Of a DNA stretch of 64,000 nucleotides, positions 24,301 through 42,300 are shown piece after piece. The translations under genes were made by a program, and so were the position numbers. Source of the DNA: Euglena gracilis (lineage: Eukaryota); NCBI GenBank assembly GCA_039621445.1, contig CP154954.1, positions 29,826,395 through 29,890,394 of the forward strand. Direction: 5' to 3'. Position 1 is the first letter of the stretch, and each line of letters starts with the position of its first letter. Below the pieces are notes generated by a model that searched no databases, had not been told where the DNA came from, and saw nothing but the letters and a program-made list of their open reading frames with translations.

Positions 24301-27300
24301 GTTGTTGTGTTTAGAGCCACTTCCTGGTGTTGTTCGTCAGTTCACCGTTCCGTTGCCACCACGTGTTGCTGACACCCCCCCTGTCCCCCCCCCCCTGCCC
24401 AACAGCATTTTTTTCCCCGCCAGCATCGCTGTGTCTGTACGCAGCCCCCCAAGCCCGCGGAGCAGCGCCGCCCGCCGGCCATGAGCCCGGCGGACTTTGC
24501 CGTGGAGTGCCTGCGGCGCAACGAGCAGAAGTACTCCGCCCGGAGCAAGGCGATGCCGTCGTACTTCGTCCGCGAGGAGGTGGCCAGGGTTTCTATATCC
24601 GGGCGTTTGTTCTGCCTGGGAGGTGGAGCGCCAACTCGGGGTCCCAGGCATCTGCTCAACCTCCCCCCTCCCTTCTCAGCCCCTGGTCTCCAATGGACAA
24701 AGAAAACCTGCAGCTGGTGCGGGCGGTGGCGGACAACAAGGTGACCGTCATCTCAGGCGGGACGGGGTGTGGTATGACACCTTCTGTCTGCCCTTCACAG
24801 AGCCTTGACAGAACAGGGTTTACAAGCCTCAGCTCTGACCCTTGGTTTGAAACTTTAATTCCTGGCGACCATTTCTCACATACGTTTTGCAAGTTTTTTT
24901 TTCAGATCATTTGTCGAACGGTAAAGGGCCTCTGCAAAACGACCCTGCTGTGTCATAATTGGAAGCATTTCCTTTGAAGTCTTCAACCTTCAATAGAACG
25001 ATTTGATTCTTTGTGTGGTGTTTGAATAACTAAGAAAATTAGTCGAGTCGAAATTCCTCCAACAATATTACAACTGTGTAATACTCACATTGTGACCCCG
25101 CCGAAGTGCTTTTCCTGTGGCATCAATTTCTGTTTGGGAAAGCGTTGTGTGTCGGGTATCTTCCCCGGTCCTTCCAACTCACAGGGAAGACCACCCTCAT
25201 CCCGCAGTTCCTCCTGGATGCGAACATCGTCCCCGGAGACCGCCAGATCATTGTGCTCAGGCCGGCCTCGGCGTTGTTGGGACATGTGGGGTTGGGGGGG
25301 GGCAGGCCTGGATGGTGAAGCCGGTTGGGCAAGGCACCCTCTCGACCCTGTTCGCGGTGTGGGTCAGCCCTGAGGGGGTGCTGTGGGCGACACAGCCGCG
25401 CCGCATCTCCGCCATCACCATCCCGGAGTACATCTCCAGCGAGCGGGGACAAGAGCTTGGTGGCGAGACCGGCTTCCAGATCCGCTTCGTCAATATGGTG
25501 TGTGCGCGCGATGTGTGTGTGTGTGCATGTGTATGATGTGTGTGGAGGGTGGGTGGGTGTGCGCATGCGTGCTTGTGTGCATGTGTGTGTGATGTGATGT
25601 GGTGTGATGTGATTTGATGTGATGCGATGCGATGCGATGTGATGTGATGTGAGAGAGAGAGAGAGAGAGAGTTTTTTTCAGCCCCCCCCCCACCCCCGGG
25701 AGGGTGACGCAGAGCTCGTTTGTAACGGTCTGCACCACACAGACAAGAGCGGTCGGGGACGAGGGTTGGCAGGGTCGTCACCCCTGACGATGCCCCACCT
25801 GCCAGCCTGGGGCGAAACCGCAACACAGACTGACAACACACGCGCCCACACCGACTGACAACACACTTCCCCCACAAGCACACACTCTCGGGTCGGCAAG
25901 GAGTTCCCCCCAAGGAGTTCCCCCAGCAACACCGATTCAGAAGAGAGATTTACGCAGTGACCCTGCGTCCCATGGAGCTTTCCATGGCATTTTTCCCAGA
26001 ATTGCATGGCGCGGTTGTTTCGCACCCCCATGCCTCGCCCCCAGCGCCCCATTTTGTGGGCTAAACCCGCGGCAGTTCTACTGAGCAACCGGCGGCTCAG
26101 GCCACCCCCTCCCCCAGGGGTTGGTGCTGCGACCCCAGGACCGGCGGCTTAATTTGGGTACTCGCGCCCCAAGCCTTCGGGTGCCGTCCGTATTTTTCGG
26201 CAATTTTTGCCTCTTTCCACACCGAAAGGGCCTTGTCTCGCCCTCCCCAAAGGGTGCTGTCCCGGAGGGTGCCCCGTAGGTAGTGGACCATTTTTCCGTC
26301 CCGCGCTGCCTTGTTTTTGGGGCCGGTTTTTTTCAGCCCCCCCCCTCCCCCACCCCCGGGAGGGTGACGCAGAGCTCGTTTGTAACGGTCTGCACCACAC
26401 AGACAAGAGCGGTCGGGGACGAGGGTTGGCAGGGTCGTCACCCCTGACGATGCCCCACCTGCCAGCCTGGGGCGAAACCGCAACACAGACTGACAACACA
26501 CGCGCCCACACCGACTGACAACACACTTCCCCCACAAGCACACACTCTCGGGTCGGCAAGGAGTTCCCCCCAAGGAGTTCCCCCAGCAACACCGATTCAG
26601 AAGAGAGATTTACGCAGTGACCCTGCGTCCCATGGAGCTTTCCATGGCATTTTTCCCAGAATTGCATGGCGCGGTTGTTTCGCACCCCCATGCCTCGCCC
26701 CCAGCGCCCCATTTTGTGGGCTAAACCCGCGGCAGTTCTACTGAGCAACCGGCGGCTCAGGCCACCCCCTCCCCCAGGGGTTGGTGCTGCGACCCCAGGA
26801 CCGGCGGCTTAATTTGGGTACTCGCGCCCCAAGCCTTCGGGTGCCGTCCGTATTTTTCGGCAATTTTTGCCTCTTTCCACACCGAAAGGGCCTTGTCTCG
26901 CCCTCCCCAAAGGGTGCTGTCCCGGAGGGTGCCCCGTAGGTAGTGGACCATTTTTCCGTCCCGCGCTGCCTTGTTTTTGGGGCCGGTTTTTTTCAGCCCC
27001 CCCCCCTCCCCCACCCCCGGGAGGGTGACGCAGAGCTCGTTTGTAACGGTCTGCACCACACAGACAAGAGCGGTCGGGGACGAGGGTTGGCAGGGTCGTC
27101 ACCCCTGACGATGCCCCACCTGCCAGCCTGGGGCGAAACCGCAACACAGACTGACAACACACGCGCCCACACCGACTGACAACACACTTCCCCCACAAGC
27201 ACACACTCTCGGGTCGGCAAGGAGTTCCCCCCAAGGAGTTCCCCCAGCAACACCGATTCAGAAGAGAGATTTACGCAGTGACCCTGCGTCCCATGGAGCT

Positions 27301-39300: not shown

Positions 39301-42300
39301 CTCCCCCAGGGGTTGGTGCTGCGACCCCAGGACCGGCGGCTTAATTTGGGTACTCGCGCCCCAAGCCTTCGGGTGCCGTCCGTATTTTTCGGCAATTTTT
39401 GCCTCTTTCCACACCGAAAGGGCCTTGTCTCGCCCTCCCCAAAGGGTGCTGTCCCGGAGGGTGCCCCGTAGGTAGTGGACCATTTTTCCGTCCCGCGCTG
39501 CCTTGTTTTTGGGGCCGGTTTTTTTCAGCCCCCCCCCCTCCCCCACCCCCGGGAGGGTGACGCAGAGCTCGTTTGTAACGGTCTGCACCACACAGACAAG
39601 AGCGGTCGGGGACGAGGGTTGGCAGGGTCGTCACCCCTGACGATGCCCCACCTGCCAGCCTGGGGCGAAACCGCAACACAGACTGACAACACACGCGCCC
39701 ACACCGACTGACAACACACTTCCCCCACAAGCACACACTCTCGGGTCGGCAAGGAGTTCCCCCCAAGGAGTTCCCCCAGCAACACCGATTCAGAAGAGAG
39801 ATTTACGCAGTGACCCTGCGTCCCATGGAGCTTTCCATGGCATTTTTCCCAGAATTGCATGGCGCGGTTGTTTCGCACCCCCATGCCTCGCCCCCAGCGC
39901 CCCATTTTGTGGGCTAAACCCGCGGCAGTTCTACTGAGCAACCGGCGGCTCAGGCCACCCCCTCCCCCAGGGGTTGGTGCTGCGACCCCAGGACCGGCGG
40001 CTTAATTTGGGTACTCGCGCCCCAAGCCTTCGGGTGCCGTCCGTATTTTTCGGCAATTTTTGCCTCTTTCCACACCGAAAGGGCCTTGTCTCGCCCTCCC
40101 CAAAGGGTGCTGTCCCGGAGGGTGCCCCGTAGGTAGTGGACCATTTTTCCGTCCCGCGCTGCCTTGTTTTTGGGGCCGGTTTTTTTCAGCCCCCCCCCCT
40201 CCCCCACCCCCGGGAGGGTGACGCAGAGCTCGTTTGTAACGGTCTGCACCACACAGACAAGAGCGGTCGGGGACGAGGGTTGGCAGGGTCGTCACCCCTG
40301 ACGATGCCCCACCTGCCAGCCTGGGGCGAAACCGCAACACAGACTGACAACACACGCGCCCACACCGACTGACAACACACTTCCCCCACAAGCACACACT
40401 CTCGGGTCGGCAAGGAGTTCCCCCCAAGGAGTTCCCCCAGCAACACCGATTCAGAAGAGAGATTTACGCAGTGACCCTGCGTCCCATGGAGCTTTCCATG
40501 GCATTTTTCCCAGAATTGCATGGCGCGGTTGTTTCGCACCCCCATGCCTCGCCCCCAGCGCCCCATTTTGTGGGCTAAACCCGCGGCAGTTCTACTGAGC
40601 AACCGGCGGCTCAGGCCACCCCCTCCCCCAGGGGTTGGTGCTGCGACCCCAGGACCGGCGGCTTAATTTGGGTACTCGCGCCCCAAGCCTTCGGGTGCCG
40701 TCCGTATTTTTCGGCAGTTTTTGCCTCTTTCCACACCGAAAGGGCCTTGTCTCGCCCTCCCCAAAGGGTGCTGTCCCGGAGGGTGCCCCGTAGGTAGTGG
40801 ACCATTTTTCCGTCCCGCGCTGCCTTGTTTTTGGGGCCGGTTTTTTTCAGCCCCCCCCCCCTCCCCCACCCCCGGGAGGGTGACGCAGAGCTCGTTTGTA
40901 ACGGTCTGCACCACACAGACAAGAGCGGTCGGGGACGAGGGTTGGCAGGGTCGTCACCCCTGACGATGCCCCACCTGCCAGCCTGGGGCGAAACCGCAAC
41001 ACAGACTGACAACACACGCGCCCACACCGACTGACAACACACTTCCCCCACAAGCACACACTCTCGGGTCGGCAAGGAGTTCCCCCCAAGGAGTTCCCCC
41101 AGCAACACCGATTCAGAAGAGAGAGAGAGAGAGAGAGAGAGAGAGAGAGAGAGAGAGAGAGAGAGAGAGAGAGAGAGAGAGAGAGAGAGAGAGAGAGTGG
41201 GTGGGTGGGTGGGTGGGTGGGTGAGTGAGTGAGTGTGTGAGTGAGTGTGTGTGTGTGTGTGTGTGAGTGAGTGTGAGTGTGAGTGTGAGTGTGTGTGTGT
41301 GTGTGTGTGTGTGTGTGTGTGTGTGTGTGAGAGAGAGAGAGTGTGTGTGTGTGTGTGGGCGTTACGCCCGAGGGCACCCAGTGGGCACATCCCAGCCTAG
41401 GTTGGACCTCCACCCCGGTACGTATGCACCGGGGCCTGTCTCTGCAGACCACCCCCGAGACCCGCATCGTGTTCGCCACCACCGCCATCCTGCTGCGCCG
41501 CCTGCACACTGACCCCATCCTTAGCTCTGCCGGCATCCTCATAGTGGACGAGGTCCCCCCCCCCAGCCTCCTGTCGATGTGCAGTGGATTGTTGGGATGG
41601 CAGACGTTTTGCAATCAAGGTTGACACTACAAAGCCAACCCAGCCAAAGCAAAAAAAAAGCATCAGATCATCAGCATCAGCAACGGTGGCCAGGTTGTTT
41701 CCTTAGACCTATTTTGTCAGTTGTGAAAGCTTCCATTCAATGAATATTGGTTTTGCGGAGAATTAGAGACACGGCACGAAATAATGATTACCCCTCCACC
41801 CCCTCACCCTCCATCTTCATAAATGCGCGGGGGGGTCTGGCTACCCCCTCCCCCAGATCAACCACTACTGAGTCCCCGGGGAGCAGGCTTTTGCTTAAGG
41901 GATTTCAGTACCCCCCTGGGGGGGGGCTGGACTGCAACCTCCACGTACACAGACAAAAAGGGCCAGAGGCGGACAACAGCGCCAGGCCAGAAGAAGGGAT
42001 AAAAGGCACCAAAAAACAGCCACAGCAGCTAGTCCAAATTTGGCCAGTGGGATTTCTAGCAGGGCTACGTAGTGGAAAAAAATTTTTTGGGACCCCAAAA
42101 ATGGCCAAAAATGCCCGTTTTTGGCCATTTTTGGAAATTTTTAGAACAAAATCAGCCAAAAACCTATTAAAACCTCATTTCCATCTCGGCGCGCAGCGCC
42201 GGAGGAATGCCGGCGGGGATACCGGTACTTTGGGGCTGCCAATTATTATACCTCTAACACACCGTGTCTTGATAATAAGTTGAAATGTCTTACCATTTCA

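Follow-up and report, generated by a model that had tools for sequence, protein, structure and literature searches.

A candidate retrozyme-like array of type III hammerhead motifs in a helicase intron of Euglena gracilis

A stretch of 64,000 nucleotides of the Euglena gracilis nuclear genome (NCBI GenBank assembly GCA_039621445.1, contig CP154954.1, positions 29,826,395 to 29,890,394 of the forward strand), referred to here as the window and numbered from its first letter, contains a tandem array of ~661-bp non-coding units, each carrying a motif with the core of a type III hammerhead, a self-cleaving ribozyme. The array lies on the sense strand within one intron of a DEAH-box helicase gene. 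From its sequence and predicted structure we read the array as a young retrozyme-like self-cleaving repeat that would behave according to the mechanism proposed below, and we assign this reading a probability of about 0.55. The array, the intron that holds it and their borders are the following.

25672..41124, + strand: tandem array of 23.4 units of ~661 bp, 62% GC, non-coding (repeat spacing, and edges read in the sequence)
25498..41447, + strand: host intron, GT...AG, 15,950 nt, with GTG at 25498 and ...ctctgcag ending at 41447 (protein-to-window mapping)
25381..25497, + strand: upstream exon with DEAH-box helicase motif Ia (TQPRRISA...GFQIRFVNM), residues 74-112 (tblastn)
41448..41552, + strand: downstream exon (...ILIVDEV, motifs Ib and II), from residue 113 (tblastn)
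25652..25671, no strand: (GA)10 adjoining the array on the left, preceded by a (TGTGA)n/GT-rich tract that runs from the 5' end of the intron
41125..41357, no strand: (AG)n followed by (GTGG/GTGA/GT)n, adjoining the array on the right, with the junction within the unit's own CAGAAGAGAGA

The array and its hammerhead motif

A repeat search of the window identified 24 head-to-tail copies with start-to-start distances of 647-664 nt, mostly 660-661 nt. The array spans 15,453 nt, which correspond to 23 full units and a 282-nt part-unit that also includes a hammerhead. An earlier, sequence-only reading of this DNA had described 24 tandem units of ~661 bp over the same span and had taken the unit to be non-coding, and both descriptions stand: the longest stop-free stretches of the unit, read circularly, are 99 amino acids on the + strand and 159 amino acids on the - strand. 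A coding circular replicon was ruled out, as all frames of the unit hold stops. At the left edge of the array (25671/25672), (GA)10 abuts the unit's TTTTTTTCAG, and at the right edge (41124) the unit's CAGAAGAGAGA, in a unit reading ...GATTCAGAAGAGAGA, passes straight into (AG)n. The GC content is 0.622 in the unit and 0.46-0.59 in the flanks. Searching the window for further copies of the array returned low-complexity matches only, and the array is thus a single locus within these 64 kb.

An identical 73-nt hammerhead segment was found by exact-string search in 24 of the 24 copies. It starts at 25749, 26409, 27070, 27731, 28391, 29050, 29710, 30371, 31032, 31693, 32354 and 33001 in copies 1-12, and at 33662, 34322, 34982, 35642, 36295, 36956, 37617, 38277, 38941, 39602, 40263 and 40925 in copies 13-24. 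The parts of the motif are given here for copy 2.

25749..25821, + strand: hammerhead copy 1 (73 nt; exact-string search), predicted cleavage between C25754 and G25755
26409..26481, + strand: hammerhead copy 2, the reference for all folds and for the Rfam alignment
26409..26414, + strand: stem III 5' strand GCGGU and C17 of the GUC triplet, pairing with ACCGC at 26477-26481 (ensemble probability 0.83-1.0)
26415..26443, + strand: stem I hairpin of 3 bp, a bulged A, 5 bp and the 12-nt loop 1 (26423-26434), read from the sequence
26444..26450, + strand: core CUGACGA (C3-A9), read from the sequence, in the Infernal register
26451, + strand: extra U between A9 and G10.1, aligned by Infernal as an insertion
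26452..26473, + strand: stem II hairpin of 6 bp with the 10-nt loop 2 (26458-26467)
26474..26481, + strand: core GAAA (G12-A15.1) and stem III 3' strand, GAAA followed by CCGC, with A26477 also in stem III

The full type III core (CUGACGA, GAAA and GUC) is present in all 24 copies, the A15.1-U16.1 pair is formed and the nucleotide at position 17 agrees with the H17 consensus. Stem I has 8 bp (3 + 5 with the bulged A), stem II has 6 bp and stem III has 5 bp; stems I and II are capped by loops and stem III is open. The complete type III hammerhead that the sequence-only reading had seen in every unit can thus be read, core and stems, in each of the 24 identical segments, and its GUC site ending at C25754 is confirmed in the sequence as the predicted cleavage position. 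Outside the array, where it is found 24 times, the core heptamer CTGACGA has a single occurrence in the window (54159). It is the sole CTGANGA of the unit when both strands are searched, with none on the - strand. When a 91-nt segment was compared to Rfam, Hammerhead_3 (RF00008) was the top of five matches (16.8 bits, E 0.18), and the Infernal alignment covers the whole model (positions 1-54 of 54) in the hammerhead register.

The chance of such a motif was estimated with a hammerhead descriptor of our own and with Markov-1 random sequence of unit composition. The descriptor matched once per unit on the + strand and nowhere on the - strand, and gave no match on either strand of the other 48,405 nt of the window, looser stems included. 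Random sequence gave one match in 20 Mb and two in 183 Mb (three in 203 Mb) when stems I, II and III were required to have at least 3, 4 and 4 bp. With at least 3 bp in every stem there were 12 matches in 183 Mb, none of which attained the real 8, 6 and 5 bp. The expected number of minimal chance matches per 661-bp unit, both strands included, is therefore ~2e-5. The same minimal rate, ~1.5e-8 per nt, leads one to expect tens of chance matches in a genome of 2.37 Gb, so that the case rests on the tandem-repeat setting and on the quality of the motif, not on the motif alone. The motif is quite probably a hammerhead by descent or by selection.

Variation among the units was counted across the 23 full units, in 666 alignment columns. 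Fifty-seven of these columns are variable and group into 31 events, all of them outside the hammerhead (columns 1-73), with variation beginning only at column 88. The sequence-only reading had placed the differences between units outside the ribozyme, as they are, and the clusters and deletions that it listed are present at ~30545-30560, 31810-31858, 32623 and 35936. The chance of finding none of the 31 events within the hammerhead is nominally ~0.03, a figure that overstates the case because variant events cluster within single units, and the variant-free hammerhead is weak evidence of constraint. Similarly, the 24 identical motifs count as one observation that was copied and not as 24 independent ones. 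Units differ by ~0.2% from their consensus. Each substitution is a singleton, seen in just one of the 23 units, and a good part of the differences concerns homopolymer length or lies in tight clusters in single units. This star-like pattern of singletons fits an array that most likely arose in one copying burst, with later local amplification as the alternative.

Two smaller repeats were observed inside the unit. A perfect 14-mer duplication, two copies of CAAGGAGTTCCCCC, is located at 25897-25924 and is present in 23 of the 24 units, and an imperfect repeat of ~13 nt, CAACACAGACTGA, directly follows the hammerhead on its 3' side. Both point to small-scale slippage inside the unit.

Predicted folds of the motif

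Loop 1 and loop 2 of the hammerhead are complementary to each other over 10 nt, and the corresponding duplex has a predicted energy of -19.9 kcal/mol. Shuffling the letters of the loops produced a 10-nt match of this kind 637 times in 200,000, and pairing random segments of the unit did so 41 times in 200,000. The hammerhead fold of copy 2 has a predicted energy of -28.0 kcal/mol. In 5' fragments of the motif, stem I is the first helix to form (39 nt, -10.2 kcal/mol), and a folding route in which stem I is followed by the capture of one loop by the other and then by stem II is plausible in these models.

Several results weigh against an active ribozyme, and with it against our reading of the array as a self-cleaving repeat. 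The comparison to Rfam hammerhead models with Infernal, which had been proposed along with the sequence-only reading, brought no model to its threshold: the 16.8 bits of RF00008 are far under its gathering threshold of 48.5 bits, and no Rfam model reaches the gathering threshold anywhere in the whole window. The hammerhead is also unlisted by Rfam on 1,330 nt at E ≤ 10, a scan of a length at which search filters hide weak matches, as the 91-nt scan of the same motif does report one. The low RF00008 score is due to loop insertions of 23 nt and 13 nt and to the extra U. This extra U, lying between A9 and G10.1, speaks against full activity; an extra core nucleotide at that position was reportedly the subject of a study by De la Pena and Flores in 2001. 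In the computed folds, the pseudoknot-free minimum is not the hammerhead but a hairpin of -37.5 kcal/mol, compared to -28.0 kcal/mol, in which the core is sequestered, and stems I and II have a probability of ~0 in the pseudoknot-free ensemble. In addition, a complete 10-bp helix between the two loops is sterically unlikely.

The nested hairpin also pairs GUCGUCA with UGACGAU and in this way buries the core. It wins in the computed folds because the folding program, which works without pseudoknots, nests the loop complementarity. Two uses of that complementarity are possible in these models, and they are compatible with each other. The loop pairing may be a tertiary pseudoknot that joins helices I and II, and the hairpin may be an inactive alternative state that shields the ligated monomer from being cut again. 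Switches to an inactive fold that protect ligated monomers are known in hammerhead viroids.

The pseudoknot has precedents. The available text of Perreault et al. 2011 (PMC3088659) ties the difference in stem length to pseudoknots in type III hammerheads and estimates that ~40% of hammerheads use such a pseudoknot. As the rule is given there, the Euglena motif fits it, with a stem I that exceeds stem II by 2 bp. In vitro cleavage reached 50-60% for extended type III hammerheads whose helix II has 6 bp and whose loops form Watson-Crick pairs, according to De la Pena et al. 2021 (PMC7936874).

The unit as a whole is structured to a limited degree. The circular + strand folds at -254.3 kcal/mol with 58% of its bases paired (z = -2.4 compared to 60 dinucleotide shuffles), and the circular - strand has z = -1.5. 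A fold that is only mildly more stable than its shuffles adds to the points against our reading. By these models the unit has some structure and no viroid-like rod; the sequence-only description, hairpin-rich and viroid-like, holds only to a mild degree.

The helicase intron that holds the array

The flanks of the array encode a DEAH-box helicase. Translation of the sequence to its left gives the motifs GKTT and TQPRRISA, and to its right ILIVDEV, HERD, SATL, TNIAE and QRRGRAGR. A 63-amino acid exon query matched one protein, with 100% identity over 89% of the query: EukProt EG_transcript_8154, of 567 amino acids. This protein maps to the window in 12 tblastn segments with 86-100% identity; its residues 1-52 and ~288-361 were not placed by the segment filter. 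EG_transcript names belong to the Euglena gracilis transcriptome (PMC6366073), and the euglenid origin suggested by the sequence-only reading is confirmed by these 12 segments of exon matches. The protein match breaks off with residue 112 at 25497 and resumes with residue 113 at 41448, which places the array inside one intron, on its sense strand; the recorded helicase mRNA is correctly spliced across it. The gene as a whole is multi-exon, occupying 25184-50014 of the window on the + strand with motifs I, Ia, Ib/II, III, V and VI, exons of 16-60 amino acids and introns of up to kilobases.

Without the array, the intron would measure ~497 nt, nearly all of it GT/GA microsatellite; the median intron of E. 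gracilis is 598 nt (PMC6366073). GA repeats are found on both sides of the array, and the right junction is inside the unit's own GA-rich motif. Since the array-less intron would be ~500 nt of microsatellite, the array looks like an insertion into the (GA)n tract of a formerly ordinary ~500-nt intron. Some Penelope-like elements are biased to microsatellite targets, according to the available text of PMC8557442; this preference is cited as a parallel and not as evidence of kinship.

In human cells, introns cut by a hammerhead are still spliced (Dye et al. 2006, via the available part of PMC2995048), and a faster ribozyme, that of hepatitis delta virus (HDV), blocked splicing, as the same text reports (PMC2995048). 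By analogy, the spliced host mRNA would be compatible with an active intronic hammerhead because hammerhead-cut introns are spliced in human cells, an argument that may not carry over to Euglena, and the recorded transcript could derive from an array-free allele. On the other side, 24 sense-strand ribozymes in the intron of an expressed gene could be costly, and in Xenopus non-LTR retrozymes, which have no long terminal repeats (LTRs), are depleted from introns (preprint 10.64898/2026.07.22.740005). Both points belong with those against our reading.

The sequence GGTTTTTTTCAG, at 26329-26338 and in every unit, is a strong polypyrimidine-AG stretch resembling a 3' splice acceptor. The host intron thus includes 24 decoy acceptor-like sites on the sense strand, each ~80 nt upstream of a hammerhead cleavage site.

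The surroundings of the array are unusually rich in microsatellites. Short arrays of a 10-mer (CCACCGGATC / CCCACCGGAT) are located at 21985-22128, 23570-23649, 45961-45998 and 47430-47469, on both sides of the array and some of them in helicase introns; they resemble a dispersed minisatellite or a piece of some repeat family. Short tandem repeats with G runs were observed at 14534-14929 and 17833-17874, and at 52755-53078 (GGGGGGGTCTTATTTTTG; GTCCTGGGGGG). Long dinucleotide tracts include (CA)215 at 48868-49295 and (GT)63-65 at 43866-43996 and 58749-58875. No tRNA genes were found in the window.

Relation to known elements and origin of the array

Two classes of retrozymes have been described. 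Plant LTR retrozymes carry a type III hammerhead, measure ~700 nt (600-1000) and have a GC content above 55% (PMC4918200; PMC7229834). They have LTRs of 300-400 bp, a primer binding site (PBS), a polypurine tract (PPT) and 4-bp duplications, and usually occur as a dimer (PMC4918200; PMC7229834; PMC7761336). Metazoan non-LTR retrozymes carry a type I hammerhead, have units of 150-450 bp with a GC content below 50%, and occur in many tandem copies with no LTR, PBS or PPT (PMC7229834). A circular RNA that is copied by a rolling-circle mechanism has been proposed as the means of their spread (Cervera & de la Pena 2020, PMC7229834), and in Xenopus 42-44% of the retrozyme copies are located in introns (preprint 10.64898/2026.07.22.740005).

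The Euglena unit is similar to the plant elements (Cervera, Urbina & de la Pena 2016) in its type III hammerhead, its single polarity, its lack of coding capacity, its 661 nt and its 62% GC, and by analogy a circular RNA of ~660 nt would be its expected product. It differs from them in its host, a euglenid and not a plant, and in its 24 head-to-tail units, as the plant elements have 2-4 hammerheads each. The hammerheads themselves also differ: those of plants have classical helices of 6 bp and 4 bp with non-canonical loop contacts, as far as the available text of PMC7936874 describes them, whereas the Euglena motif has long helices and a Watson-Crick match between its loops. No plant-type LTR ends were found, as the ends of the array are not TG...CA and its GA microsatellite flanks give no definable 4-bp duplication. 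Twenty-three units followed by a 282-nt part-unit with a hammerhead are formally LTR-like, yet this is expected of any array. The plant-type PBS 12-mer for tRNA-Met had no match in the array with up to 3 mismatches, and a Euglena-specific tRNA primer could differ from it. The sequences beside the phases at which the array ends are neither TGG... nor polypurine.

With the metazoan non-LTR retrozymes and hammerhead satellites (newt Sat2, Schistosoma Sm-alpha, cave cricket) the Euglena array shares multi-copy tandem units with one hammerhead each and no LTR, PBS or PPT found. The metazoan elements, unlike the 661-bp, 62% GC Euglena unit with its type III motif, have type I hammerheads, in which a weak helix III, acting as a dimer, is frequent. 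They are also linked to Penelope-like elements, and none was seen at the Euglena locus. The sequence-only reading had proposed a mixture of the two classes. This comparison returns one that is plant-like in type, length and GC content and animal-like in layout, and the element appears from its sequence to resemble a retrozyme or a self-cleaving satellite while failing the defining features of both described classes.

Structural likeness, not based on sequence, extends to the extended type III hammerheads of Drosophila pseudoobscura and of the HDV-like circular RNAs of toad and termite, which share the 6-bp helix II, the longer helix I and Watson-Crick loop pairing, as the available texts describe them (PMC7936874, PMC3088659). 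There the pairing involves ~4 bp and an internal loop of helix I, according to the same texts (PMC7936874, PMC3088659), whereas in Euglena it involves the terminal loops and 10 nt. The Euglena complementarity also permits the competing hairpin, unlike that of the extended hammerheads. The amniote intronic hammerheads HH9 and HH10 (de la Pena & Garcia-Robles 2010) share the sense-strand position in the intron of a protein-coding gene, but are single-copy, ultraconserved and of type I (cited in PMC6155905), and the Euglena array is young and has 24 copies.

Type I hammerheads have been reported in protist satellite DNAs in a 2017 review (PMC6155905), so that ribozyme satellites as such already have a precedent among protists. 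The sequence-only reading knew of no described euglenid example, and our literature search likewise found no paper on Euglena hammerheads, retrozymes or ribozyme circular RNA, in a search that was partly loosely framed and whose scope did not extend to survey supplements or to the 2010 'tree of life' survey. The 2024 E. gracilis genome paper annotated miRNA, tRNA, rRNA and snRNA only, and LTR elements make up ~22% of its assembly (PMC11252322).

Searches for relatives of the element add further points against it. Neither metagenome contigs nor viral contigs matched a hammerhead pattern whose loops were left free (0 matches in each), and an open reading frame (ORF) on the - strand of the unit had no relative among predicted proteins. 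These scans thus supplied neither homologues that could reveal covariation in the stems nor a sign of dispersed copies. No reverse transcriptase or other Pfam domain appeared in the ten longest ORFs that lie outside the array. A looser pattern of core and stem II retrieved six metagenome loci (L001-L006), which were rejected as unrelated to the unit and had no gathering-level Rfam match. Two of these, L002 (4944-4977, - strand) and L006 (1311-1344, - strand), have in common CUGAUGA-U-GCCCC...GGGGC-GAAAC, after which come a short hairpin, UC and a strand that complements the sequence preceding CUGAUGA. By eye they resemble type I hammerheads with an extra U after A9; their helix III hairpins differ, they are below the Rfam gathering score and the resemblance was given no weight.

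Other classes of RNA were searched for in the unit. Rfam tiles over the unit revealed no other ribozyme family. A match to drz-agam-1 (HDV-like) at 26956-26998 on the - strand (14.5 bits, E 0.93-1.5) was rejected as noise from a G run and an A run, because only the ends of the model align and 56 model positions are replaced by 17 nt. Genes for C/D-box snoRNAs, with a C box RUGAUGA that pairs with a D box CUGA, occur in tandemly repeated clusters in Euglena. A canonical cluster of this kind was rejected here, as the unit lacks a C box, TGATGA being absent from both of its strands.

The mechanism that we propose would begin with transcription of the array by RNA polymerase II within the helicase pre-mRNA. 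The unit has one T7 run and several T5 runs on its + strand. Runs of T terminate RNA polymerase III, and a multimeric + RNA would therefore need polymerase II or I. In the nascent RNA, stem I would fold first, loop 1 would capture loop 2, and stems II and III would close. The RNA would then cut itself after GUC, giving 661-nt monomers with 5'-OH and 2',3'-cyclic phosphate ends, which may be circularised by a cellular RNA ligase. Refolding of the monomer to the more stable hairpin would bury CUGACGAU and protect the ligated circle from renewed cutting. One possibility for the origin of the array DNA is reverse transcription that runs round a circular or multimeric RNA template, primed at a nicked (GA)n target, whose (TC)n strand would pair with the RNA's AGAAGAGAGA; alternatively, a short insert may later have been amplified in place. 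Put together, the sequence features could describe a third retrozyme architecture, with LTR-less tandem units of ~660 nt, a pseudoknotted type III hammerhead that switches to and from a hairpin sequestering its core, mobility via circular RNA copied by the reverse transcriptase of a host retroelement, priming in GA microsatellites by the element's own GA-rich motif, and expression of intronic copies on host pre-mRNAs. This fuller picture is tentative, and we would sooner doubt it than adopt it.

The array could instead be an ordinary satellite or minisatellite, amplified by unequal exchange or slippage, whose hammerhead-like sequence is a matter of chance or a dead relic without meaningful cleavage. 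The sub-threshold Rfam score and the extra core nucleotide fit this explanation, as do the 9.5 kcal/mol by which the competing hairpin is the more stable and the lack of homologues in the metagenome, viral-contig and protein scans. The genome, moreover, is 2.37 Gb with 9.85% tandem repeats (PMC11252322), in which tens of minimal chance matches are expected, and the scan that yielded the motif covered very many windows. We nevertheless consider it unlikely, since a minimal match in this given unit has a chance of ~2e-5 and the real stem lengths were never reached in 183 Mb of random sequence, and since a chance motif would need neither the complementary loops nor the 2-bp stem difference; non-coding tandem repeats are, besides, the classic home of eukaryotic hammerheads (PMC6155905). 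A different proposal accepts active hammerheads but makes the element immobile, acting on the helicase gene by tuning its expression or releasing intron RNAs, as domesticated amniote intronic hammerheads would. Its appeal lies in the sense orientation within an intron of an expressed gene, in the precedent of intronic hammerheads for which a part in mRNA biogenesis has been proposed (PMC6155905) and in the dependence of splicing of a cleaved intron on the speed of the ribozyme, as the available text of PMC2995048 states it. The amniote cases, however, are single, ultraconserved and of type I, whereas the Euglena array has 24 copies of ~0.2% divergence in a microsatellite and resembles a recent insertion and not a conserved regulator, which makes a host-gene role improbable.

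Alternatively, the array may descend from an exogenous circular RNA, viroid-like or satellite-like, that a reverse transcriptase of the cell or of a virus captured in DNA as a multimer; the retroviroid-like integration of carnation small viroid-like RNA would be a parallel. The unit has a length in the viroid range, a type III hammerhead and no coding capacity, its DNA is multimeric and head-to-tail, and the star-like variation is consistent with the copying of one template. This origin is nonetheless quite improbable, as there is a single ribozyme on one strand only (the drz-agam-1 match on the - strand being spurious), the fold with 58% of bases paired and z = -2.4 is no compact rod, and the pattern has no match in viral contigs. 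Finally, a misplaced or over-expanded repeat in the assembly could account for the copy number or for the placement in the intron. The units are nearly identical, and their differences are often homopolymer lengths or clusters in single units, like polishing errors; near-identity may, to the detriment of our reading, equally stem from homogenisation or from such polishing. Yet both junctions are seamless, with unique flanks between two exons adjacent in the mRNA, and the 15.4 kb of the array fall within long-read length. An artefact of this kind is very improbable, and the motif itself would be unaffected by it.

Our preferred reading, of a young self-cleaving repeat related in kind to retrozymes, thus concerns a candidate that is striking and well defined, in an unexpected lineage and context, and that rests on one locus and on sequence alone. 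The locus would offer natural tests of how 24 sense-strand ribozymes affect the splicing of a 16-kb intron, and of whether a loop-loop pseudoknot set against a competing hairpin acts as a switch between cleavage and protection. A euglenid element that combines a tandem layout with a plant-sized, GC-rich type III unit would widen the range of retrozymes to a distant eukaryotic supergroup and would bear on a possible common origin of the two retrozyme classes. Should the tentative picture of a third retrozyme architecture be true, the range of ribozyme-driven circular-RNA retroelements would come to include Discoba, and the plant and animal classes would be linked.

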